From sequence record PQ567651.1: a stretch of DNA of 64,000 nt, one strand, 5' to 3'. Made by a program: the position numbers and the translations under genes. Each line of letters begins with the position of its first letter. Position 1 is the stretch's first letter. The notes under the pieces are model-generated. The model worked only from the letters and a program-made list of their open reading frames with translations, did no database searches and was not told the DNA's origin. Positions 4,774 to 16,203 of this stretch are shown one piece after another. The stretch is from Escherichia phage cardinal.

Positions 4774-5046
4774 TTAATGTCGTAGTTCACTAAACTTACA
4801 AACAAAGTGAACGTTAAGAAAAGTTAGTTTTCGATCTGGTGTAAACTCTGTTACTGTTTTATACACCTGTGCAATACCGAACCTGTTGATAGCAGGTACT
4901 GACAATTGGCTTATACATTTCATAGCTGACAGTTTTGCCTCTTCTTCAGATGCAAAATAAGTAAAGATACCTTCTTCGTCAACTATAATTTCTTGTGTAA
5001 CACAATCTACAAAACAAAAGAAAACATTAGGTAATTTTTCCGACAT
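4774..5046 (-). CDS. hypothetical protein
   Basis: 90-aa ORF with RBS. Confidence 0.5.
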   Translation of the reverse strand: MSEKLPNVFFCFVDCVTQEIIVDEEGIFTYFASEEEAKLSAMKCISQLSVPAINRFGIAQVYKTVTEFTPDRKLTFLNVHFVCKFSELRH

Positions 5047-5047
5047 A

Positions 5048-5260
5048 TTAGTTGTTCCTGTACTTAGAGAACAAAGTATTGACTAACCAGTCAGCAAACA
5101 GTAATCCAAGTGTACCAATACCGTAACCGATAAGCATAATGTAAGGCACTGCCTTATTTTCATTACCTGTCATTACTTCAGGAAAAATCAAAAACACAAT
5201 ACCGTTACCAACGATAATCCAGAACATAAGAAACACAAACATACGAAGCAACATTGTCAT
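5048..5260 (-). CDS. small hydrophobic (membrane) protein
   Basis: 70 aa, two hydrophobic segments. Confidence 0.5.
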   Translation of the reverse strand: MTMLLRMFVFLMFWIIVGNGIVFLIFPEVMTGNENKAVPYIMLIGYGIGTLGLLFADWLVNTLFSKYRNN

Positions 5261-5261
5261 A

Positions 5262-5444
5262 TTATTCTTCCTCCTTCACTTCTTCAACTTTACGAAGCAT
5301 ACGTTTATCAAATGTAGCTTTCTGTAGTTGTTCATTAACATCAAACCACACCACTTCGCAAGTATCGTAGGTAGATACCATTACAGTCATTAACATTTCT
5401 TCACTGGCAAGACGTACAATATCACCTGTTTTAATATTTACCAT
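5262..5444 (-). CDS. hypothetical protein
   Basis: 60-aa ORF, packed between neighbours. Confidence 0.45.
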   Translation of the reverse strand: MVNIKTGDIVRLASEEMLMTVMVSTYDTCEVVWFDVNEQLQKATFDKRMLRKVEEVKEEE

Positions 5445-5848
5445 AACTCCTCCAGAAGTTTACCAAGTTTAGTTTTAAATTCATTATCCCACGCTATACG
5501 AACTATGTCAAGATCACCTTGTGCATTACGTTTTGTATCTAAGTAGTAACCACCATGCTCATAGCGGTGTTTTATATGCTCGATCAGACGTTCTTTACCA
5601 CTCTTAGATAAATAATCATCAAATTCCCCATTGAAAAGGTCTAAGATTGTTTGTCTATTATCTCCTAATTGAGTGATTCTAAAGCTAATCAAACATCCCT
5701 GTAAACCTATATCTGTTTGTTTAAGAGAAAACTCATGACCAAAGCCGCCTGTAACTATAACAAGCGGTTTTCCTGTGATAGAGCTTTTAATAACATCTTG
5801 CTTAGGTTCTGCCAAAGATGTTAGAAACTCTTTTAACCATTTGAACAT
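5438..5848 (-). CDS. hypothetical protein
   Basis: 136-aa ORF. Confidence 0.5.
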   Translation of the reverse strand: MFKWLKEFLTSLAEPKQDVIKSSITGKPLVIVTGGFGHEFSLKQTDIGLQGCLISFRITQLGDNRQTILDLFNGEFDDYLSKSGKERLIEHIKHRYEHGGYYLDTKRNAQGDLDIVRIAWDNEFKTKLGKLLEELW

Positions 5849-6008
5849 AAACTCTCCTGTGTGGCGTGGCTTTGCCTAAGCGCCGAAGGCGCGGATCAAA
5901 TATAAGCTGAATTTATTACGCCCAGGTAGCCAGGGCGCATAAATATCAGAAATTTACCATCGAATAACTATTCGAGTAAAATTTTCATCGTAATGAGATG
6001 TTTCTGTA

Positions 6009-6203
6009 TCAATAAAAGTTGAAAAAACCTTCAGCATCCAAGCTAACTTTTGCGAAAGTTGGATAAAGCGTGTATATAGCAACTTCTCTGTCTCCATCTT
6101 TAGCTGCTCTCTCAATATACGCGTAGATATTTTGTAAACTCTCCTTTGCTTTGTTAAGTTCTGCGTTTTCTGCCAGTTCTCTCATTTTATCTGCTACAGT
6201 CAT
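6009..6203 (-). CDS. hypothetical protein
   Basis: 64-aa ORF. Confidence 0.45.
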   Translation of the reverse strand: MTVADKMRELAENAELNKAKESLQNIYAYIERAAKDGDREVAIYTLYPTFAKVSLDAEGFFNFY

Positions 6204-6472
6204 TTGTCAGTATCCTTTTCAATAAATCCTGTGGTTTTACAAGGCACACATTCATACATCTGTCCAACATCTGCAACTACCCAACCCATTCCATTGCAAT
6301 AAGGACAGATTGTTTTGTTCTCTTTAGCATACACAGCCAGAAGTCTTTCTTCTAGCTTGTTGTAATCAGCAAGAAGAACATAGTCTCCTTCTGGATCTGG
6401 TACAATATCACATTGACCAGCAGCACCTTGGCTGTACACCTCTAAATCATATCGTGTAACCATTATTCCCAC
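6200..6472 (-). CDS. small zinc-ribbon-like protein
   Basis: CPYCNG...CVPCK cysteine pairs; overlapping start/stop with neighbours. Confidence 0.5.
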   Translation of the reverse strand: MGIMVTRYDLEVYSQGAAGQCDIVPDPEGDYVLLADYNKLEERLLAVYAKENKTICPYCNGMGWVVADVGQMYECVPCKTTGFIEKDTDK

Positions 6473-6681
6473 TCCGCAATCAGTTTTGGATTTTCTGCAC
6501 GAGAATAGAATGTTGTAATGTCACCGTAAGTGTACTCTTGTTCCGACAGTTTTACAAGAGAGATCATTTCACGATCTGGAGTACCAGGAATCCAATCAAA
6601 TACGGCAACGCCACGTGGTGTTACATAGAAACCAGATGTATTACCCGTAAACTTATCTTTTCCTTTATATAATTTGTACAC
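6463..6681 (-). CDS. hypothetical protein
   Basis: 72-aa ORF. Confidence 0.45.
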   Translation of the reverse strand: MYKLYKGKDKFTGNTSGFYVTPRGVAVFDWIPGTPDREMISLVKLSEQEYTYGDITTFYSRAENPKLIAEWE

Positions 6682-6734
6682 TTTCTACTCCTCATAGATA
6701 GAATCTATTAAAAACCTGCTATCAATCGGTATAA

Positions 6735-6805
6735 ACAGTTTTACTTTTCGTAAAAAACATGCTACCCTAATCTTATATACCGAGCGATAGCGAGGTAGAG
6801 AATAT
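6735..6805 (+). promoter_or_regulatory. conserved ~70-nt intergenic element, copy A
   Basis: ttttacttttcgtaaaaaacatgctaccctaa...cgagcgatagcgaggtag matches copy at 33616-33685. Confidence 0.4.
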
Positions 6806-6888
6806 TCCATGTTATACATGGAAAGAGTATATGTAATGTTACTAACTCTATAACTAACTATATACTCTTTATACCTTACTTACTACTC

Positions 6889-7131
6889 TTATTGAAGTTC
6901 AAAGATATCCCCATCTCCATCATATCCATACTCTAACTCTCCTGTATCATATAATACAATAAAGTCTGTATCATCTTCAATAAAAGATTTAGCATAATCT
7001 ACTAACTCTTCATTATCTTCATACCCTTCCAGGTACTCAATACGACCATTGATACATTTAGCTGCAACAACTCCTGGGCCATTGCTTGGAGTCCACTCAC
7101 TGTATACTCGCATACCTAATTCTTTAATCAT
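6889..7131 (-). CDS. hypothetical protein
   Basis: ORF; start set at ATG preceded by GAGGAG. Confidence 0.5.
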   Translation of the reverse strand: MIKELGMRVYSEWTPSNGPGVVAAKCINGRIEYLEGYEDNEELVDYAKSFIEDDTDFIVLYDTGELEYGYDGDGDIFELQ

Positions 7132-7348
7132 TGTTTGTCTCCTCATAATCAATGTAGTTGTAACACTTATTCTTTAAGAAATCTTCTGCTTGTTTCTTGT
7201 GTTTTAGAATGATGCACTTCTCTTTATTCTGTTCTACATCATTATGTAGATTGTATAAGTTAGATGCACCATACAGAATACCAATTAACAAAAGCAAAAA
7301 GATTGCTGTTGATAACAAAAATTGTTGCAACTTGTTTACAGACTTCAT
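7124..7348 (-). CDS. small membrane-anchored protein (paralog of 12134-12343)
   Basis: N-terminal hydrophobic helix; shared C-terminal motif C(I/V)(I/V)LKH..AE.FL...Y.(D/N)Y; AAGGAGG RBS. Confidence 0.55.
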   Translation of the reverse strand: MKSVNKLQQFLLSTAIFLLLLIGILYGASNLYNLHNDVEQNKEKCIILKHKKQAEDFLKNKCYNYIDYEETNND

Positions 7349-7401
7349 AAACCCTCCTTATCGTTAGTACACATTGATACTAACAAGAAGTTAAGATCGT
7401 G

Positions 7402-7575
7402 TCAACATCTTTGTGTTAATTTTATCCACTGTTCACATTCTTCTTTTGTGTCGTACTCTACAGGCTTTCCTGTATCATTTCCACAACCATCTCCGAACGT
7501 AGCCCACCAGGAGAATAGAAAACAAGTTTCTCTTACTCTCCACTTATTGGCATAAGGTACAACATAATAACTCAT
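7402..7575 (-). CDS. small Cys/Trp-rich protein, 57 aa
   Basis: ATG overlaps upstream stop (ATGA); below track cutoff. Confidence 0.4.
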   Translation of the reverse strand: MSYYVVPYANKWRVRETCFLFSWWATFGDGCGNDTGKPVEYDTKEECEQWIKLTQRC

Positions 7576-7823
7576 AAGATTGTGATCCTTAGTTCATTTT
7601 CTAAGGTATGTCTCACACATTCTTTGAAATTGTTATCAATATAAACAACACGTACTCCATGAGGTGTTTCTTTACATTCAAACACATTATATACAGTGTC
7701 AGATAAGACATGTTGTACGTTTACTTGTCCAATACCATCTTTAACCACAACCATCACTTTCAGTAAACTTGTATGGTTTTTAACTTCATCTTCTACGTAT
7801 GCTACAACATCTTTGATATTCAT
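7572..7823 (-). CDS. hypothetical protein
   Basis: 83-aa ORF, AGGAGA RBS. Confidence 0.5.
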   Translation of the reverse strand: MNIKDVVAYVEDEVKNHTSLLKVMVVVKDGIGQVNVQHVLSDTVYNVFECKETPHGVRVVYIDNNFKECVRHTLENELRITIL

Positions 7824-8119
7824 TGTTTCTCCTGTTTAAGTACGATATAAGATTGACGAGATTTCCATCGTCCTATCTTAACAAGGCAAATAATGCCTCT
7901 CTTTAACAGATATTTCATATCTTCGTCATAAGCTGTTTGCAATTGCCACTTACTGTTAACAGGAAGAGAACCATGTACCCTTAAATGAGCTAACAGATAC
8001 TTTCTTCGCTCCTTCCCATAAGGCAGATATTGCCATTCTTTCTTTGATACAGGTTCATGTACTTTACGATGCCAGTAAGTAAGGTGTCTTCTTTTATGTA
8101 AACCCCTATTCCTTACCAT
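7820..8119 (-). CDS. basic hypothetical protein
   Basis: 99 aa, K/R/H-rich; GGAGG RBS. Confidence 0.5.
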   Translation of the reverse strand: MVRNRGLHKRRHLTYWHRKVHEPVSKKEWQYLPYGKERRKYLLAHLRVHGSLPVNSKWQLQTAYDEDMKYLLKRGIICLVKIGRWKSRQSYIVLKQEKQ

Positions 8120-8358
8120 TATACCTCTACCTCCGTTACCCCAGGATCTCTAGTCCAGGTGTAGTAGAGCATACCATCTTCTTTCAGTGCAATGCGATCA
8201 CTTTCGTCTCGAAGATATAGGTCACATACTACGCGCAGTTGCGGATCTGATCCGAGTAGTTCTGAAACAATAAGGTCATCACCGCTCATACGAGCAACAA
8301 TCACTGCATATTGACCAGTATCTGCATCAAAAATTGGTTGTCCGATGTTTAATTGCAT
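8119..8358 (-). CDS. hypothetical protein
   Basis: 79-aa ORF, AAGGAGA RBS. Confidence 0.5.
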   Translation of the reverse strand: MQLNIGQPIFDADTGQYAVIVARMSGDDLIVSELLGSDPQLRVVCDLYLRDESDRIALKEDGMLYYTWTRDPGVTEVEV

Positions 8359-8543
8359 TGTGTTGTCTCCTTATTCAGTACGTTGTTTTGTGCTGCGCAC
8401 CAGCACTCATAAAAACCTTGGGTTAATGGCATAGTGTAGTTTCCAGAAGGATCTCTTTCGAGATCCCCATCTGCATAACAACCACTACCTAAGAACCATT
8501 TTTCAAAATCGGATAAATCATCCCAATCTACACTATTTTTCAT
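8349..8543 (-). CDS. hypothetical protein
   Basis: ORF; start trimmed to internal ATG abutting upstream stop. Confidence 0.4.
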   Translation of the reverse strand: MKNSVDWDDLSDFEKWFLGSGCYADGDLERDPSGNYTMPLTQGFYECWCAAQNNVLNKETTQCN

Positions 8544-8544
8544 A

Positions 8545-9003
8545 TTATACTGTCTTATATCCGACAATAGCAACCTGATTCGTAGGCTTCCAACGACCAA
8601 TAATCTCACCAGAAATCTCTGTGCTACCATTTATGTATTGGTAATGGGTATCATCATGATTAACCCATGCCATAACGTCAAGAGTAGGGGTTTTGACGTG
8701 TACCAGTAGTGTAGCCCATTCTGGGGCTTCTTTAATATCCACAGAATCTTGCCAATCTTCTTCGATGTGCCAAGTAGGTTCGCCATCAACATCTGTAACG
8801 AAGAAACGAGCTTTCATACGTTTAAAGAACATTGGTGTATACCCATGATCGCACTCTGGGATAAAATCATCCATCGTTTCGTCATAGGTGAAATATTGTC
8901 CATCTTTATAATGAAAAGATGCACAAAACAGTTCATTACGAGCAGGAACATGCCATACAGCTACAAAACTACGACCATGTGGATAATGTTTAACCTCTTT
9001 CAT
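8545..9003 (-). CDS. hypothetical protein
   Basis: 152-aa ORF, AAGGAGA RBS. Confidence 0.55.
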   Translation of the reverse strand: MKEVKHYPHGRSFVAVWHVPARNELFCASFHYKDGQYFTYDETMDDFIPECDHGYTPMFFKRMKARFFVTDVDGEPTWHIEEDWQDSVDIKEAPEWATLLVHVKTPTLDVMAWVNHDDTHYQYINGSTEISGEIIGRWKPTNQVAIVGYKTV

Positions 9004-9018
9004 AGTTTTCTCCTTATT

Positions 9019-9363
9019 TTATTCAAAAGAATCAATTCGATTTTGTTCTATGTCAATTGCAGCTTCTAAGATAAGTTTTAATGCTTCAAATTGCAAGTCT
9101 TCCTCTAAAGAGAAGACATATAAAACAACGGATTCCAAGTAAGACAGCACTCCAAGACTAAGCGTTGCAATCTCTACTCCTGCATCGGAGAAACCTGTTT
9201 GCAAAACTTCTTTGAAGAAACGTTGTTTATCAACAATAGCAGATAAGATAAGCGTTTTACGCTCGTCTGCTGATCGTACTGTGCAGTATATGTTGCTAAA
9301 AGAATCTAGCCACATTTTGATCATACCTTGTCGGTACATAAGGATTTCAATATCAGCCAACAT
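9019..9363 (-). CDS. hypothetical protein
   Basis: ORF; start set at internal ATG (MLADIEIL) adjacent to upstream stop. Confidence 0.45.
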   Translation of the reverse strand: MLADIEILMYRQGMIKMWLDSFSNIYCTVRSADERKTLILSAIVDKQRFFKEVLQTGFSDAGVEIATLSLGVLSYLESVVLYVFSLEEDLQFEALKLILEAAIDIEQNRIDSFE

Positions 9364-9364
9364 A

Positions 9365-9532
9365 TTATCTCTCCTCTGGAGAAAGATTTGCATTAATTTG
9401 ATAGTAAAAATCAAAATCCTTGTGTTGATCGCACCATTCTTGAGCTTCTTTAAATGACGCAAATTGCATAGTGAATGTTGCCATCCACGTGTTCATACTT
9501 TTATTGAACTTGTCGATAAAAAATGTTTGCAT
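9365..9532 (-). CDS. hypothetical protein
   Basis: GGGAGGA RBS then ATG overlapping upstream stop (TAATG). Confidence 0.45.
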   Translation of the reverse strand: MQTFFIDKFNKSMNTWMATFTMQFASFKEAQEWCDQHKDFDFYYQINANLSPEER

Positions 9533-9750
9533 TATTCCTCCCATTTTATCCAAAGGCAGTATTCTGGAACATAAACCTCCTTCCCTTTGTTATTTACAAA
9601 GGTGTACTCCACAAATTCTGCTTTATATGTTTTGTTATATTCCTGTGCTGCTGGCACAGGACATTTTGTAATGCGCGTTTCAGTCCAACGGCGGTGTATA
9701 ACCGCCTTGTTCTTTGGATCAAACGGATGTATAAAGTGTGTTTTACTCAT
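9532..9750 (-). CDS. hypothetical protein
   Basis: 72-aa ORF from first ATG. Confidence 0.45.
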   Translation of the reverse strand: MSKTHFIHPFDPKNKAVIHRRWTETRITKCPVPAAQEYNKTYKAEFVEYTFVNNKGKEVYVPEYCLWIKWEE

Positions 9751-10147
9751 GCGCCATTTCCACAAGATTTTTAATCATAGTTTCTCGACAGAGATTCCAC
9801 ATGTCCGAAGCAACCATAGCAGCATATTCATCGGGGTTGGATTCTGGTAAAATCTCTTTAACTGCTTCTGGTGTCGGGTTGCACATAGCAGGTAGTGCTT
9901 TAAGTGCATCTTCAATAGAGAGCTTTTTACCTTCACTGTAAATAACTTCGTAAGCATAGTCATTTACATCTTCTGGAATATCTTGATCCAGGTAACGCAC
10001 AGTAGAGTTATGCATTTTGTTCATAGCTTCACTAACACCAGCGCCACAAAGCTGTGCAACTTCTTTAGAGATACAGTCACAAATAACAACTTCGTAAGGC
10101 TTTCCACCATAATACTGCGCATTATATTTGATTTTAACAGACCACAT
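9743..10147 (-). CDS. hypothetical protein
   Basis: 134-aa ORF with AAGGAGAG RBS. Confidence 0.55.
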   Translation of the reverse strand: MWSVKIKYNAQYYGGKPYEVVICDCISKEVAQLCGAGVSEAMNKMHNSTVRYLDQDIPEDVNDYAYEVIYSEGKKLSIEDALKALPAMCNPTPEAVKEILPESNPDEYAAMVASDMWNLCRETMIKNLVEMAHE

Positions 10148-10157
10148 ATTACTCTCC

Positions 10158-10844
10158 TTATTTAACGTGTTTTAGCAATTCAATGTTGGCAGAATAGTTT
10201 TCACCACAATTAGTAACGCTCAACAGTGACCATTTACAAGAGAATACACCTTTTAGATGATCTGGAACACACATCAGCGGAACATAAACTGTTTCTGAAT
10301 CTTGTGTTTGCTCTGTTTTGTTAACATTGCAACAAAATGGCAATACATCATCATGAATCATTTTACATTCACTCAAATTATCTAACATATGTGAAACTTG
10401 TTCTGAAGTTTCAAACATTTGTGCTTCACAAGCCAGCGCACCAACCACTTGATAAGCCTCTCCACACAAATCTTCTAGTTCTAAAATACGTTCAGACATA
10501 GCTTCGATGATTGCTGATCGTGCTTTCACCTTAGTTTCTGCTTCTTTAATTTTCTTCTCAAGTTCTGTAATGTACTTCAGTAGTGCACTAACAACATCTG
10601 GAGTATTTTCTTGATCATCTTGGGAAATTTTTACCAAAGAAGAAGCTGCTTTGCAGCGCACTTTAGGCTCTACGTAGCCAAAAGTCATATTTTCCGAAGA
10701 AGATTGTTGTGAAAACCAGTGTTTGTTCGAAGAAAACACAGGTTCATCTTCAAACCAGAACACATCTCCAGTGATATCACGAGCCATGAAATTTGCATTG
10801 TCTGGAACTTCGTAACGATGCCCTTCAAACATAATCTCTTTCAT
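10158..10844 (-). CDS. hypothetical protein
   Basis: 228-aa ORF; start overlaps upstream stop. Confidence 0.55.
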   Translation of the reverse strand: MKEIMFEGHRYEVPDNANFMARDITGDVFWFEDEPVFSSNKHWFSQQSSSENMTFGYVEPKVRCKAASSLVKISQDDQENTPDVVSALLKYITELEKKIKEAETKVKARSAIIEAMSERILELEDLCGEAYQVVGALACEAQMFETSEQVSHMLDNLSECKMIHDDVLPFCCNVNKTEQTQDSETVYVPLMCVPDHLKGVFSCKWSLLSVTNCGENYSANIELLKHVK

Positions 10845-11254
10845 TACACATCCTCCATTTGGAACATCTTCTTGTGGTTAGAATAGATCTGTTTGAAAAT
10901 CTTGTCAAGGCGTTCATATGATTCTTTATGCTCTTGTTTCCATCCATGATTTCGGATTTTATCTGCCAGGTCATAAGCCTCGCATAAAACTTTGGCAAAG
11001 TTGGTATTATCTATAGCACAAGCCTCAAAACCTTGAACTAAACCCTCTACATCATACCACGTATAGTCAGAGTCACTAGGAGTCTTTCCTGCATCGGCTA
11101 AACGTTGCCTCACCCATTCGATACGTTTTTCATTTAAATGGCACTTACCTTCTCTACACTCTTGTTCTAATTCTTCTTTAGATTCGTTGAATGGGTGAAG
11201 GACAGGAAGTTCTGCTTTTTGCAATTGCTCCAGGTATTCACCTACAATGCGCAT
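10844..11254 (-). CDS. hypothetical protein
   Basis: 136-aa ORF. Confidence 0.55.
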   Translation of the reverse strand: MRIVGEYLEQLQKAELPVLHPFNESKEELEQECREGKCHLNEKRIEWVRQRLADAGKTPSDSDYTWYDVEGLVQGFEACAIDNTNFAKVLCEAYDLADKIRNHGWKQEHKESYERLDKIFKQIYSNHKKMFQMEDV

Positions 11255-11258
11255 AGCT

Positions 11259-11426
11259 TCACTGTGTACACTTTCTGCCTGTGTGCCAATAACGGAAGAT
11301 ACTTTCTGTTAAACAGATGTTTTTACTAAACATCGCATTGTCTTTAACATTCGATCTATTAACCCAGTCTAAGTAATATACATAAAACTGCAATAATTCA
11401 TAACTGCTTGGTATAACTTTACTCAT
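11259..11426 (-). CDS. hypothetical small protein, 55 aa
   Basis: strong AAGGAGAGG RBS; not in ORF track. Confidence 0.45.
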   Translation of the reverse strand: MSKVIPSSYELLQFYVYYLDWVNRSNVKDNAMFSKNICLTESIFRYWHTGRKCTQ

Positions 11427-11604
11427 AACCTCTCCTTAATTGTGCAAAATGTTATCGATCAGTATGACTAATAGTACGAGGATAGAAGGGAGTAGGAATA
11501 GAAATCTTAACATTATGTGATGCGTGTGAGAAGCGGCTTTAGCGCCAGCCGCCAATAAGCCTACTAATCCTACAATAAAGAGCAGTTGTTCAGGGACACC
11601 CATA

Positions 11605-11829
11605 TTATGGAACACTTGGATACTCCGTAAGTTCGGCTAATAGTTGGATATGTGGACACGTGAATTGTTGTCCTGGATAGCGTGAGCTAATATCATCCAG
11701 TAAAGCAATCACAGCATTGTGCAATGCTTCGTAATCTTCATAATACACCATCTCTCCATTAGGATCTTCAACAATATCACAGTGGCAAGCGTGAGCAGTA
11801 CACGCATCCCATTCCAGACGTTTTACCAT
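11605..11829 (-). CDS. small Cys/His-rich protein
   Basis: 74 aa; AGGAGGG RBS. Confidence 0.5.
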   Translation of the reverse strand: MVKRLEWDACTAHACHCDIVEDPNGEMVYYEDYEALHNAVIALLDDISSRYPGQQFTCPHIQLLAELTEYPSVP

Positions 11830-11875
11830 AAACCCTCCTATTTATATATCAAGAAACACAAAAGAATAACATCTA

Positions 11876-12124
11876 TCACCAAACCGTTACTACTCCGGTA
11901 CGTAGCGTCTCTTCATGTCCCCAAATATCCGCTTCAATTGTAATTACAACCCACTCCGTGCTCCACTGAATACCAGTGATCTCTGTGAGATGTGCAGCTT
12001 CACGTTGTAGTGAGGCTGTGTCTGTAAGAGACGCACGTAAAGCATCCAATTCTTGTTCAATTTTGGTACGTTCTTCTTCGGTAATCGGTGTACCAACACG
12101 ATCAAAGGTAAAAATATCTAACAT
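11876..12124 (-). CDS. hypothetical protein
   Basis: 82-aa ORF, AGGAGGG RBS. Confidence 0.5.
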   Translation of the reverse strand: MLDIFTFDRVGTPITEEERTKIEQELDALRASLTDTASLQREAAHLTEITGIQWSTEWVVITIEADIWGHEETLRTGVVTVW

Positions 12125-12133
12125 ACTTCCCTC

Positions 12134-12343
12134 CTAATTATAATTCACATAGCGCCCACAATCCTGTTCAAGAAATTTTTCAGCATCCCTTTGGTGCTTT
12201 AACACGATGCACTGTTCTTTTTTAGCTTCACTTTCACGAGCTTCTCTTGCCATATACTCACCTAAACGAATGATACTAGAGAATAACACGTATGCAAGAA
12301 TAAGACAAACAGTGATTGCACAGAAAGTTTTAAACTTAACCAT
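12134..12343 (-). CDS. small membrane-anchored protein (paralog of 7124-7348)
   Basis: hydrophobic N-terminus; C-terminal EQCIVLKHQRDAEKFL...YVNYN matches EKCIILKHKKQAEDFL...YIDYE; GGAGGA RBS. Confidence 0.5.
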   Translation of the reverse strand: MVKFKTFCAITVCLILAYVLFSSIIRLGEYMAREARESEAKKEQCIVLKHQRDAEKFLEQDCGRYVNYN

Positions 12344-12686
12344 TGTATTCCTCCATATCACGAATACGATCAATCACCCATTGTACACGTTCTTTATTAA
12401 GGTGTGCAATGCCTAGTTCTGTTTCCGTAAAGTAGTGCGAGAAATCCGTATTAAACGGATGTAAATGGTTCAAACCCGCTTTCTTAAATTGTTCCTTCAT
12501 TTCCTCTCGTACAGAGGATTGGAGCTTTGATACATTCTCAACATCTTTTATCCAAGCAATATTGTACAAGAAGTCTACAAGACACGTGCAAAGACCATAA
12601 TGCTTTTTGCTAAAGTTTGTATCTTCTTGTTCTAACCACCACTCATAAAATTGTAGCAAATAGGAGCTGCTTTTCATGTTACACAC
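12336..12686 (-). CDS. hypothetical protein
   Basis: 116-aa ORF, AGGAGA RBS (possible GTG start). Confidence 0.45.
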   Translation of the reverse strand: MCNMKSSSYLLQFYEWWLEQEDTNFSKKHYGLCTCLVDFLYNIAWIKDVENVSKLQSSVREEMKEQFKKAGLNHLHPFNTDFSHYFTETELGIAHLNKERVQWVIDRIRDMEEYNG

Positions 12687-12699
12687 TTTATTATTCTCC

Positions 12700-12999
12700 T
12701 TAATACCAGTCTACGATCACTGAATCTACAAAGCCCTCTTTGGTGTTTAAAGCATACACCTTACTAAGCCCATGCTCTCGTAGTGCTTCCATAGCAAGAT
12801 CAATCAAATCAACTTGTCGTTTCTTTGCTTGTTCATTTTTTGGATAGTCATCCAAACCGAAAACAGACGGTTTAAATGCTTTGGAGTATTTGCCAGTTTT
12901 AGCCTGATCATAACAGTCCTGAATAATTTCCTCAATAGGAAACCATAAACCTTCTCCACTTTGCTTTGCAATACAGCGCAGTTTTTCTGTAATAGTCAT
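12700..12999 (-). CDS. hypothetical protein
   Basis: 99-aa ORF, AGGAGAGG RBS. Confidence 0.5.
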   Translation of the reverse strand: MTITEKLRCIAKQSGEGLWFPIEEIIQDCYDQAKTGKYSKAFKPSVFGLDDYPKNEQAKKRQVDLIDLAMEALREHGLSKVYALNTKEGFVDSVIVDWY

Positions 13000-13208
13000 T
13001 CTTCCTCTCCTTTCAATTTACACTCAAAGATACCATTCTTAATGTTATCTGTCAAATAAAGGCTATCTTCTATCTCTTCTTTTGTATACACATAAGCCTC
13101 CTTTTCCACGTCTGTCAGACCTTGCATCGGAGCTAGTAGCCACCAGCCCCGCCAGTCAAACATAGGAGACTTATCAGATACACGAAGAATGTATCTGTCA
13201 TTACACAT
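12996..13208 (-). CDS. hypothetical protein
   Basis: 70-aa ORF. Confidence 0.45.
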   Translation of the reverse strand: MCNDRYILRVSDKSPMFDWRGWWLLAPMQGLTDVEKEAYVYTKEEIEDSLYLTDNIKNGIFECKLKGEEE

Positions 13209-13211
13209 ATA

Positions 13212-13664
13212 TTATACGATGTTCACACTAATATCTGCAACACCAACAAGAGAATAGACTTCAACTACACTTTGTGTACGATCCAGCTTGTAACGTTTCG
13301 CCTCTTTTTCAACTTCCTCACGGGAGATGGTTTCCATGATCGGAACTCCATCCACTACAAGCAGGTATTTCTCTTCGTGTTTACTTTTTGGTGCTTCCTC
13401 TAAGACTTCTACAAAATACTCAAACTCACTTTTTGCAAGCAACGTGTAACACTGAAGAAAGTCTCCTTCATTTTGAGCGATAATTTCTTGTTCTCCTGCT
13501 AAGGATTGCAAAGCAGTGACACCATACCAATCATCCACATCTAATACACGAAAATAAGAATCACCTAAAAAAGAAGCAATCCTGCTATTGCACTCAGACA
13601 CGTTAGCAAACTTACGGATATAAGATGGGTTTTTAAAACGATACACTTTACCAATTTCAAACAT
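13212..13664 (-). CDS. hypothetical protein
   Basis: 150-aa ORF. Confidence 0.5.
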   Translation of the reverse strand: MFEIGKVYRFKNPSYIRKFANVSECNSRIASFLGDSYFRVLDVDDWYGVTALQSLAGEQEIIAQNEGDFLQCYTLLAKSEFEYFVEVLEEAPKSKHEEKYLLVVDGVPIMETISREEVEKEAKRYKLDRTQSVVEVYSLVGVADISVNIV

Positions 13665-13675
13665 TACACAAATCC

Positions 13676-13852
13676 TTATTGTTCAAGAGTAAAAGGAATG
13701 ATTTCACCATAGCTGTATTGCATGGCATTCACTTCTGCTTCTGCACGTTGTGCTAGTTCTAATGTTGCACAGATTTTGTAAGGTACAGTGCTGCATTGGC
13801 TCCAGCCTGGGGTATTCTTTGTTACTAAGTACACAGTAGTCTCTTTATCCAT
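13676..13852 (-). CDS. hypothetical small protein, 58 aa
   Basis: AAGAGGAAAAG RBS; not in track. Confidence 0.45.
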   Translation of the reverse strand: MDKETTVYLVTKNTPGWSQCSTVPYKICATLELAQRAEAEVNAMQYSYGEIIPFTLEQ

Positions 13853-13866
13853 CTTCTTTTCCTCTT

Positions 13867-14082
13867 TTAAACAGTATATTCGTGTGGAAGGAAAACATAG
13901 TCTTCTCCTTCAACAACATCAACTACTTCCCACTTCCAGCCAGGTACTTGGCTCATTGTCTTGAATGACACATAAGCAACTCCGCTGTAAGCGATATCGG
14001 CATCTAACATAAGAGGGAAAGCAACGTGTGTCAATCCCAGATAACCACAATTATTTTCAATACACACCTGAATGCTTTTCAT
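13867..14082 (-). CDS. hypothetical protein
   Basis: ORF trimmed to ATG next to upstream stop. Confidence 0.45.
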   Translation of the reverse strand: MKSIQVCIENNCGYLGLTHVAFPLMLDADIAYSGVAYVSFKTMSQVPGWKWEVVDVVEGEDYVFLPHEYTV

Positions 14083-14083
14083 G

Positions 14084-14542
14084 TTATGCTCCATTAAAGA
14101 CGGGGCGTGTAGCATTACGTTCATCATTCACTGTAATAAGGTTTTTCATAACCATAACACCCTGAATATAGCCTAACCAACGATGGCGTTTGGTTTCAGA
14201 CATACCATTACACCCATCCTGAATTTCATTCAACATCCACAGTAAGTGGGAAGCACCTGTTTCACTGGTATCTGGATCTTCTACAGAACTAAGAATCGTT
14301 TCATAGCGTTCACAAATTTCTGGGTAGAATTCATAATCCTGTTGTACATCTCGCATTTCTCGAATGAAGTGACGAGCAATAGGCTTCCCACGAAAATATT
14401 CATTGATGAAATCAATAACACACATCTCACTGCCTGTCACCACGGAAGGCGTTCCTATGTTAAATTGAACACTCACACCGCATTCTTTTACAAGATTATG
14501 TACACGCTCAGTGTTAGCAAGATACAAAGATACAGTTTTCAT
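14084..14542 (-). CDS. hypothetical protein (first gene of leftward block)
   Basis: 152-aa ORF next to the large non-coding region. Confidence 0.5.
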   Translation of the reverse strand: MKTVSLYLANTERVHNLVKECGVSVQFNIGTPSVVTGSEMCVIDFINEYFRGKPIARHFIREMRDVQQDYEFYPEICERYETILSSVEDPDTSETGASHLLWMLNEIQDGCNGMSETKRHRWLGYIQGVMVMKNLITVNDERNATRPVFNGA

Positions 14543-15000
14543 TTACACCTCTCATTAGTAGTTTGTTATGCGCGATATTGCATATTTTATGGAACACAGT
14601 GTACAGACATTTCTATTCAATGCAAGCATTATTTGCATCTTATAAATTTACGTCTCATGCCACACATCATACAGCGTCTTTTCATCTATTACAAGAACAG
14701 CAACCTAGGAACATCATTAATGGAGGGATTAGTATAGGGATTAGTATAGGATTTCCCTATCAATTATTCTATATATACCTAATATTTTTAACACACCCCT
14801 TTGTACATAATATAGACAAATAAATATCTATGCCACAAAAATTTTCTGGTATACCCGATTTATTTCGACACACCCCCTTTTCATAAGCGTAAAGTCAATA
14901 ATATCAATAACTTGCCGCAAAATACTGCTCGCTTGCGAGAGGTGCTTAACGCGATTTTCAGCGCCCCCCCGATTTCTGCCGACCGTCCCCCTCAAATATC

Positions 15001-15036
15001 AATGAGAATAATTATCATTTGCATTATCATTCAATG
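15001..15036. promoter_or_regulatory. Fur-box-like palindromic site(s)
   Basis: aatgagaataattatcatttgcattatcattcaatg; overlapping (n)AT(a/t)AT hexamers. Confidence 0.4.
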
Positions 15037-15198
15037 ACTTATAAGACTTTTGATTATTTTCTGAGCAAGAAAGGTACTACTCACAACAAAACAGATAAAT
15101 TCTAAGTAAATCAATGGCTTGGCAAGTCTAAACATCTATATACACCTTGCCAAATGAAATGATCTGGCGTGAAATAGTGCCACCCGTGGAAGATAGCT

Positions 15199-15217
15199 GA
15201 TAATGATTATCATTTGC
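15199..15217. promoter_or_regulatory. Fur-box-like 19-mer
   Basis: GATAATGATTATCATTTGC vs E. coli Fur consensus GATAATGATAATCATTATC (16/19). Confidence 0.45.
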
Positions 15218-15450
15218 ATACTTTCTGTACTATAAAACCGACTAAAAATCAAGATAATTCTGATTTATTGCGCTTTTAAGAGAGTAGGCTCAACAAATAA
15301 CAACAAATGAGGTATGTTATAGGGGCAATAGTATGAAAAATCATCTATTCAGATGTAAATAATTTTGCGCAATAGTGGTAATATTTTTCTTGACAAGAAA
15401 GATTTCTTTGTGTGCACATAGCGCCCCTGGAGGGTGGCGCATTATGATCA

Positions 15451-15504
15451 TCAGTGTCATTATTCATTTCAGTGTCATTATTCATTTCAGTGTCATTATT
15501 CACC
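15451..15504. repeat. tandem direct repeat, 3 x 18 bp
   Basis: tcagtgtcattattcatt repeated three times head-to-tail. Confidence 0.9.
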
Positions 15505-15604
15505 ATGTTTATTATTGCATAGCTTATTATATGGAGCTTATATTATAGCCAATGTTCTAAACATTAGCTAATAATAACGCACCGCAACAATGTAAGGGAT
15601 ACAA

Positions 15605-15745
15605 TATACCATGTATATTGTTGCGCTTGCAATTGTTGCAAGCTACATAAGCACAAATAATAACTATCGGTGATGGTTATTATGTGGGGTGTGTAGTTGC
15701 GTTATTATTAGCCGCCTATGTGTCCGGCATAGGCTGCTAATGATA
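15605..15745. repeat. inverted-repeat cluster
   Basis: gcttgcaa-ttg-ttgcaagc palindrome and gccgcctatg...cataggctgc hairpin. Confidence 0.6.
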
Positions 15746-15779
15746 CGCTTGCGAATTATATTTCTTGTTATAGTTATTG

Positions 15780-16203
15780 TATGGAATGATTACTACATGA
15801 AATGGTTACTGTATGAAATGATTATCTAAGTAATAGATAGGAAGGTAAAGATTAGATCATAAATAGATAGGATGTGAATTATTTAGTAATGTTACTAACA
15901 ATTTAATAGTTACTTTGTGCAACAATTCGATAGATTATAATTGTAGTTTTAAGGGTTAGATAGATTATATTTAGCTTAGTAATGATTTATATTAGTTATT
16001 ATTGTTTAATACAATGTTATCAATGAGATAGTAACAGTAAGTTATAAATAAAGGTGAGATAATTAGTTTTAATTTAGTTAGATAACTTATTATTTTATAG
16101 GTTAGATGGTCTTAAGTTAAGAATGATTCTCATTATTGCATTATGCAATTTATTGCATAAATAATCAGCTATAAATAAGAATGATTATCATTTAAGAGGA
16201 AAG
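15780..16203. repeat. AT-rich iteron-like region with Fur-box-like sites near 3' end
   Basis: repeated tagatag(g) and atgaaatg(g/a)tta motifs; agaatgattctcattattgc and agaatgattatcattta near 16120-16203. Confidence 0.5.

Follow-up and report, generated by a model that had tools for sequence, protein, structure and literature searches.

What two small proteins of Escherichia phage cardinal (sequence record PQ567651.1) have in common, and what they might do in the envelope of an infected cell, is the question raised by the region described here. The window, i.e. the whole stretch of 64,000 nucleotides that was analysed, carries their genes, which we refer to as A and B, on its minus strand (Table 1). 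The initial annotation had described them as duplicated small membrane proteins of a phage early region that share an N-terminal transmembrane helix and a C-terminal motif. Both open reading frames (ORFs) are present where it had placed them, its translations agree with ours, and the motif that it quoted occurs exactly in both products, as E43-K-C-I-I-L-K-H...A-E-D-F-L...C62-Y-N-Y-I-D-Y in A and as E43-Q-C-I-V-L-K-H...A-E-K-F-L...C62-G-R-Y-V-N-Y in B. As explained below, two unannotated protein groups of the PHROGs database, one containing A and the other B, are brought together here into a single family, of which a 27-residue module with two cysteines is the conserved and selected part.

Bases 6000-13500 of the window match 55 phage records at 96-99% identity; almost all of these are from Escherichia phages of the genus Justusliebigvirus (phi92-like phages, Stephanstirmvirinae), and the closest is phage Eryne (98.7%). 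By this sequence comparison the window is assigned to a Justusliebigvirus (phi92-like) coliphage. Protein A is 96% identical to Phi92_gp022 and is encoded at full length in all 55 of the Justusliebigvirus records, and protein B is 100% identical to protein 230 of phage inny.

Relationship between proteins A and B

The paralogy of A and B is borne out by several independent comparisons. BLASTP aligns the two proteins over 66 amino acids with 32% identity (39.3 bits, E=4e-11), and their Smith-Waterman score of 93 was reached by none of 5000 shuffled comparisons (mean 23.9, standard deviation 4.6, z=15); the same outcome (0/5000) was obtained when the non-hydrophobic, post-helix halves of the proteins were compared alone. 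The PHROG profiles give reciprocal matches, with A matching group 23204 at E=1e-49 and group 15662 at 1.5e-8, and B matching group 15662 at E=9.5e-33 and group 23204 at 6.9e-7. Superposition of structure models (see below) agrees with these results, and the pairwise alignment by which the initial annotation would have had its own claim judged thus proved significant. The notion that the likeness reflects chance or amino acid composition, which might be prompted by the shortness of these proteins and the hydrophobicity of half of each, or that the ORFs are not genes at all, retains next to no probability and is regarded by us as already refuted, by the shuffles of the non-hydrophobic halves, the reciprocal PHROG matches and the conservation of an invariant motif across genera on the one hand, and by ratios of nonsynonymous to synonymous substitution (dN/dS) well below 1 and strong ribosome-binding sites on both genes on the other.

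The similarity signal is confined to ~30 C-terminal residues, and identity between A and B in the core of this region is 52%. A hydrophobic stretch of 19 residues lies toward the N-terminus of each protein (mean Kyte-Doolittle value 2.41 for the best such window of A, residues 10-28, and 2.55 for residues 7-25 of B), and to this extent the helix described as shared does exist in both; however, the N-terminal segments taken alone align no better than shuffles do (z=-0.4), and there is no measurable homology between them. The word "duplicated" likewise needs qualification, as it holds in the sense of paralogy but not in that of a recent event. A DNA-level repeat between the two genes was sought and none was found, and this result, together with the 52% core identity and the existence of two lineages that each have relatives in other phages, indicates that the duplication was not recent. 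On the evidence of their sequences, A and B are anciently diverged members of one family. Groups 23204 and 15662, both of unknown function, are separate and unannotated in PHROGs; the cross-matches between them show that they are really one family, and they are merged here under a defined two-cysteine core.

Table 1 Positions in the window of genes A and B, their parts and associated signals
Feature	Position	Strand	Description and basis
Gene A	7124..7348	-	74 amino acids; ortholog of phi92 gp022; member of PHROG 23204; ORF and translation
A hydrophobic helix, residues 10-28 (putative membrane anchor or signal peptide)	7265..7321	-	Kyte-Doolittle
A C-terminal core, residues 40-68, with Cys45 and Cys62	7145..7231	-	Family alignment, cysteine spacing, dN/dS
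A candidate promoter, sigma-70-like, TTGACA-17-TAGTAT preceded by TG	7377..7405	-	Consensus scan
A ribosome-binding site AGGAGG	7353..7358	-	4 nucleotides before ATG; annotated as ribosome-binding site in phi92
Gene B	12134..12343	-	69 amino acids; ortholog of phi92 gp007; member of PHROG 15662; ORF and translation
B hydrophobic helix, residues 7-25 (putative membrane anchor)	12269..12325	-	Kyte-Doolittle and structure prediction (AlphaFold2)
B C-terminal core, residues 40-68, with Cys45 and Cys62	12140..12226	-	Family alignment, polymorphism
B ribosome-binding site GGAGG	12350..12354	-	Sequence
Upstream neighbour of B, gp006 homolog (PHROG 2510-like, all-helical)	12336..12686	-	PHROG 2510, E=1.8e-25; context only

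The two-cysteine module and its family

The members of the family have a common plan, in which a poorly conserved N-terminal hydrophobic helix is followed by a charged helical spacer of 13-24 residues and then by a strongly conserved C-terminal module of ~27 residues with the consensus [KT]-E-x-C-[IV]-[IVY]-x-K-x4-A-x-x-F-L-x3-C-x-[RKN]-[YWL]-x-x-[YW]. An alignment of 17 sequences (numbered as in B) shows no variation at E43, C45, L58 and C62 and almost none at K49, A54 and F57. In every one of 19 members the two cysteines lie 17 residues apart, whereas the stretch from the end of the helix to the first of them is 13-24 residues long. Membership defined by an N-terminal helix plus an E-x-C...F-L-x3-C core with a cysteine spacing of 17, a definition derived in the present analysis, takes in both A and B. 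In the 27-residue core, identity to B is 52-89% for 13 of 16 relatives (33-48% for the other three), as compared to a maximum of 56% between A and any relative. B is therefore the mainstream ortholog of the family, and A is a paralogue that has diverged from it.

When 1.84 billion cluster representatives were searched exhaustively with HMMER (E<=1e-3), 18 representatives of the family were retrieved, all of 54-131 amino acids; the intact members are 61-83 amino acids long and have the common layout, and three of the 18 are truncated, fused or devoid of the N-terminal helix. A word-indexed search returned solely phi92-like orthologs and one divergent metagenomic protein. With tblastn, matches were found in 128 of 50,697 phage records, usually at two places per genome in Justusliebigvirus and at one in Phapecoctavirus (phAPEC8 and relatives), and as one copy each in a Klebsiella phage of the Stephanstirmvirinae and in the 151-kb Pseudomonas phage PsgM04F. 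Scans of IMG/VR and of metagenomes added 12 further loci, seven of them on contigs of ~148-153 kb. No relatives of A or B were detected in bacteria or archaea when one representative genome was searched for each of 185,579 species. The family is thus restricted to phages and, as far as we have seen, to large (~150-kb) myoviruses resembling the Stephanstirmvirinae.

More members of the family than the two originally noticed therefore exist in other phages and in metagenomes. In six-frame translations of the window and of the remaining 82 kb of Eryne, hidden Markov models (HMMs) of the family and of the core alone revealed no third copy, and the copy number is exactly two in the window and in Eryne, its closest complete genome. 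A metagenomic locus (L006, Logan contig of SRR13494276, 5759-6213) encodes two members in tandem, of 80 and then 70 amino acids with adjacent stop and start codons, and shows that duplication has recurred within the family. The upstream member of this pair is the most divergent one seen, although it keeps the C-x16-C spacing, and the pair is preceded by a promoter-like sequence containing TTGACA.

The conservation of the module is matched by the pattern of selection among nine Justusliebigvirus genomes (the window, phi92, Eryne, PHB05, BME3, PD06, J-01, EC_OE_11 and alia). Pooled Nei-Gojobori dN/dS values are 0.23 for A and 0.27 for B, as compared to 0.02-0.18 (median near 0.08) for 17 neighbouring genes, so that A and B are real and constrained genes that are nevertheless two to four times freer to vary than their neighbours. 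The constraint on B is unevenly distributed: codons 1-39 contain nine nonsynonymous and one synonymous polymorphic codons, and codons 40-58 contain one and six, respectively (Fisher p=0.0037). Selection protects the core of B, and the anchor of B is close to neutral. Positive selection on this anchor was considered and rejected, since nine nonsynonymous codons among 10 polymorphic ones are indistinguishable from neutrality (p=0.27). In A the constraint is looser and more even, with a dN/dS of 0.18 in the core.

The 3' end of gene B (12134-12170) may also have a history of its own. In B, synonymous divergence is 0.009 over codons 1-39 and rises abruptly to 0.285 over codons 40-58, a pattern suggestive of a recombination breakpoint within the gene. 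Directly downstream of B, an 82-amino-acid ORF (PHROG 17168; 11876-12124, minus strand) occurs only in the genomes that have the 69-amino-acid allele of B (the window, Eryne, PD06 and alia) and is missing from those in which the B allele has 72 amino acids and ends in ...ALDCNRYVSYQMYE (phi92, PHB05, BME3, J-01 and EC_OE_11).

The AlphaFold2 (AF2) model of B, built from the family alignment, has a mean predicted local distance difference test (pLDDT) score of 85. It begins with a helix over residues 2-50, which comprises the hydrophobic segment and the spacer and runs into the core; a turn (residues 51-53), a second helix (54-59) and a short turn of helix (62-64) follow. Foldseek searches with this model found nothing in the PDB and, in BFVD, only the family itself (an ortholog of B, a protein of the A type and a member from Phapecoctavirus). 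The superposition of the B model on the A-type model of BFVD, which had been built independently (TM score 0.93, root-mean-square deviation 1.1 A), provides independent support for the paralogy.

Possible topology and roles in the cell envelope

The genomic positions of A and B are consistent with early expression. In the phi92 record, the left terminal repeat is followed directly by this block, a series of small genes on one strand that all have Shine-Dalgarno sites, and counting from the repeat gp007 (B) is the 7th gene and gp022 (A) the 22nd. Such places near the physical left end are typical of early genes, and the placement of the pair in an early region, as first described, is upheld. 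Upstream of A lies a candidate promoter with 10 of 12 consensus matches and an extended -10 element (TGtTAGTAT), and phi92 and Eryne have exactly the same stretch from this promoter to the AGGAGG sequence. The gene upstream of B ends in a stop codon that overlaps the ATG of B (ATGGTTAA), and this overlap together with the GGAGG sequence suggests that translation of B is coupled to that of its neighbour.

Small early membrane proteins are among the least understood of phage genes, and the studied examples, such as Spackle, Imm, RI, Llp and Cor, govern superinfection, lysis timing or receptor access. We tentatively propose, at somewhat less than an even chance, that A and B are early-made inner-membrane proteins bearing a disulfide-stapled periplasmic knob that serves in exclusion or in modulation of the envelope. 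Both would be expressed soon after infection, with A transcribed from a sigma-70-type promoter of its own and B produced through translational coupling in the leftmost operon, and both would insert in the inner membrane so that the N-terminus is inside and the C-terminus outside. A disulfide between Cys45 and Cys62 would staple a tiny helix-turn-helix knob, held some 20-35 A above the periplasmic face, and this knob would be the working part of the protein, the helix acting only as a tether. The knob might bind either a conserved protein of the envelope or some component of related phages as they come in, and the most likely role of the proteins would be in early remodelling or protection of the envelope, through superinfection exclusion (by the logic of Spackle or Imm) or through modulation of a host inner-membrane protein (by the logic of MgrB), with different specificities for the two paralogues. 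In this scheme we infer the topology, the disulfide, the tethering, the target and the phenotype.

The orientation of the tail is the weakest link in this scheme; it is suggested by several properties of the sequences, according to which the tail probably faces the periplasm. In A, two lysines precede the helix and no lysine or arginine occurs in the 14 residues after it, and in members that have no charge at the N-terminus the helix is followed immediately by acidic residues (DFD, TDF, ESEPDDD). The presence of exactly two invariant cysteines in the core was also counted toward a periplasmic orientation, as was the prediction of export by SignalP that the phi92 record gives for gp022.

Among characterised proteins, the nearest parallels to this arrangement are architectural ones. 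The T4 Spackle protein (gp61.3), a helical superinfection-exclusion factor, is made early and exported, contains one disulfide and inhibits the lysozyme in the tail of superinfecting phage (PMC7677548). Like Spackle, A and B lie in an early region, have a putative N-terminal export segment and are predicted to have a small all-helical periplasmic domain, with a disulfide predicted as well; unlike Spackle, their soluble part has ~45 rather than 75 amino acids and is probably tethered instead of released, and the likeness finds no counterpart in a match to annotated PHROGs or Pfam or in a fold match in the PDB. MgrB is a membrane protein of 47 amino acids in which two conserved periplasmic cysteines are essential for the inhibition of the sensor kinase PhoQ (PMC8404706). 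A and B resemble it in being small and apparently single-pass, with a short C-terminal tail that contains two conserved cysteines, but this is a likeness of architecture only, as MgrB is host-encoded (enterobacterial), unrelated in sequence and without a Pfam or NCBIfam profile match to A or B, and its transmembrane helix is conserved and functional, in contrast to the variable helix of A and B.

More broadly, comparisons of A and B with Pfam (E<=10), the annotated PHROGs (E<=1), NCBIfam and PDB sequence profiles identified no characterised family, the PADLOC profiles of anti-phage defence gave no match at E<=1, and a search of the literature on early genes or exclusion in phi92 and the Stephanstirmvirinae turned up nothing on these genes. 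The part in host takeover or exclusion that the initial annotation had suggested is a generic expectation for proteins of this kind, which these comparisons neither bear out nor contradict. The sole PDB sequence match, a weak one (E=0.0055) to the C-type lectin domain of L-selectin over the segment EDC..IYIK..KDAGKWNDDAC, was judged to be due to chance because no other C-type lectin and no Pfam Lectin_C match appeared and the predicted structure is helical.

Several points weigh against the tethered-knob proposal. There are more lysines plus arginines on the C-terminal than on the N-terminal side of the helix in 14 of the 19 members (15-residue flanks), and a strict positive-inside reading of this count would put the tail in the cytoplasm. 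The Cys45-Cys62 disulfide is postulated from the invariance and spacing of the cysteines. No characterised protein, whether Spackle, Imm, RI, MgrB or another, was found to resemble A and B in sequence or fold, and a lysozyme Pfam domain is absent from the hub, spike and tape-measure proteins of Eryne, which leaves a literal Spackle mechanism without an obvious target, although the target could belong to other phages instead. The candidate promoter of A is a consensus match in a region that is not enriched for such matches (37 found as compared to 35.5 expected). Finally, a few public assemblies (proteins P0031-P0034) carry frameshifted or truncated alleles of B, with products of 47-77 amino acids and the shift located just before or within the core, and B may be dispensable in some isolates, or these alleles may be errors of sequencing or assembly.

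Among the alternatives, one in which the proteins are exported and cleaved is quite unlikely in our estimation. The mature product would be a free periplasmic factor of ~45 residues, i.e. a soluble, untethered inhibitor in the manner of Spackle. The phi92 record lists for gp022 a SignalP 3.0 HMM signal peptide (residues 1-27, probability 0.985, cleavage after residue 27), and in several metagenomic members the hydrophobic stretch is followed after 8-10 residues by an A/G-K-A|D motif. Cleavage motifs, however, are not conserved across the family and are missing from B, the hydrophobic stretches of 18-20 residues are long for Sec signal peptides, and the AF2 helix continues without a break from the hydrophobic segment into the core. 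The lack of a conserved cleavage motif and the length of the hydrophobic stretches favour an uncleaved anchor, with cleavage possible in some members.

Little weight is similarly given to a reversed topology, in which the N-terminus would be outside and the tail in the cytoplasm, where the cysteines might bind metal across a dimer or the tail might bind a protein such as a member of the gp006 family. The charge count just described would be accommodated by such an orientation, as would the absence of any charge before the helix in several members, and B-type genes adjoin, and often overlap, a PHROG 2510-like gene whose product would be a candidate cytoplasmic partner. Against it, acidic residues follow the helix in exactly those members that have no N-terminal charge, and a metal-binding site with a single cysteine on each helix would be unusual. 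The PHROG 2510-like genes are moreover multi-copy (3-8) and occur also in phages without the A/B family, and the adjacency is missing for A and for the loci L004, L006 and L008.

Roles in lysis offer a further set of comparisons. T4 RI and T4 Imm are small membrane-associated proteins of phage T4 whose site of action is the inner membrane or the periplasm, Imm having two transmembrane segments and RI acting with a T-type holin. A and B, each of which has a single hydrophobic helix, match none of the lysis or immunity families of PHROGs or Pfam, including the Imm_superinfect family of Pfam (T4 Imm), for which no match was found at E<=10. As RI-like antiholins or other regulators of lysis timing, which we regard as improbable, they would have a weakly anchored periplasmic domain that binds the periplasmic part of a holin. 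Their general layout, with a hydrophobic segment at the N-terminus and then a small helical domain that contains cysteines, would be suitable, and the helices of many members are rich in Gly, Ala and Thr and resemble signal-anchor-release domains (e.g. LLGWTTGFALLMWGAV); but those of A and B themselves are strongly hydrophobic, no lysis-annotated PHROG matches them, a T-type holin was not identified in the phage, and their genes are far from those for the endolysin and the Rz-like spanins of Eryne. The i-spanins of the Rz type also have an N-terminal transmembrane helix followed by a helical periplasmic region with cysteines, but A and B are half their size, lie in the early region and do not match the spanin profiles PHROG 4297 and 1267. 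The Rz-like spanins identified by these profiles are encoded at 144352-145018 of Eryne and the T4-lysozyme-like endolysin is also far from A and B, from which it follows that A and B are not the spanins and do not belong to the lysis cassette.

Host killing or shutoff by membrane-active peptides, Hok- or amurin-like, with the hydrophobic helix as the effector, might be imagined for small proteins with a single hydrophobic helix that are encoded in an early region, but it is very improbable, as conservation is lowest in the helix and highest in the soluble tail, whereas a peptide that damages membranes should show the reverse, and Pfam (E<=10) contains no match to Hok/Gef or any other toxin.

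A bolder form of the tethered-knob proposal, which we consider rather unlikely, would make the gp007/gp022 family a hitherto unrecognised class of tethered periplasmic "disulfide-knob" effectors of the Stephanstirmvirinae-like, jumbo-ish myoviruses. Their 27-residue stapled hairpin would block genome ejection by kin phages or disarm a membrane-embedded host defence or sensor, and the paralogues and the metagenomic tandem pair would represent specificities arising from an arms race. Phages of the phi92-like and phAPEC8-like types are common in therapy collections, and the family provides a small and well-defined experimental handle, which consists of one motif and two cysteines in each of two genes. 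Should the module bind a conserved component of the envelope, it might find use as a probe or inhibitor of compact size. At present the result improves the annotation neatly and is no surprise, the proteins being of a familiar kind.

Neighbouring genes and variation at the left end

The gene directly upstream of B belongs to the gp006-like family, which is recognised by the motif FY.WL...GLC..L...PF...HLN..R..WV. A B-type gene is adjacent to such a PHROG 2510-like gene, often overlapping it, in the window, phi92, phAPEC8 and the loci L003 and L028; in L014 the two genes are adjacent in the reversed order, and in PsgM04F (L015), L005, L026 and L027 they are one gene or <1 kb apart. The gp006 family has 3-8 copies per genome and is found also in Erwinia, Rhizobium and other phages that have no relatives of A or B. 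Its multiple copies, its wider spread and its lack of adjacency to A and to the members at L004, L006 and L008 reduce the adjacency to a lead that constitutes weak evidence, and gp006 was rejected as an obligate partner, since the adjacency recurs in some lineages only. The AF2 model of gp006, for which the alignment was drawn from the window only, has a pLDDT of 54 and is too poor for a fold search.

Other observations concern the variability of the gp006-like genes. The metagenomic contig L003 contains a tandem array of about five gp006-like copies (557-2188). In the window, the homolog of phi92 gp010 (194 amino acids; PHROG 27059 / 2510-like, a paralogue of gp006) is split into ORFs of 55 and 136 amino acids (10844-11426, minus strand) by a 2-bp deletion in an (AC)n run near 11255-11262 (GTGTACACACAG -> GTGT--ACACAG, as compared to phi92 and Eryne), and this split homolog is either a pseudogene or a sequencing error. 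The B protein of the metagenomic contig L022 is 100% identical to that of the window, yet two extra gp006-like genes lie 2-3 kb upstream of it (L022 65-854, corresponding to about 14490-15279 of the window), whereas a scan of the whole window with the family HMM detects none of this kind. Phages that are otherwise nearly identical thus differ in gene content at the left end.

Small hydrophobic proteins other than A and B are also encoded in this part of the genome. Two to three genes downstream of B, the homolog of phi92 gp009 (11436-11615, minus strand; 59 amino acids) appears to have two hydrophobic segments, and no PHROG match to it was found at 1e-5. As small hydrophobic proteins unrelated to the A/B family are encoded near family members in L003, L004 and L005 as well, small membrane proteins seem to cluster in the early region. 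An Rfam scan of positions 5000-16000 of the window found nothing. Three public records that are labelled as "Campylobacter phage" A145, A150 and A110a (MG065645, MG065639 and MG065689; C. jejuni), each of ~146 kb, are 94-97% identical to E. coli Justusliebigvirus across the region, and their host label looks doubtful.

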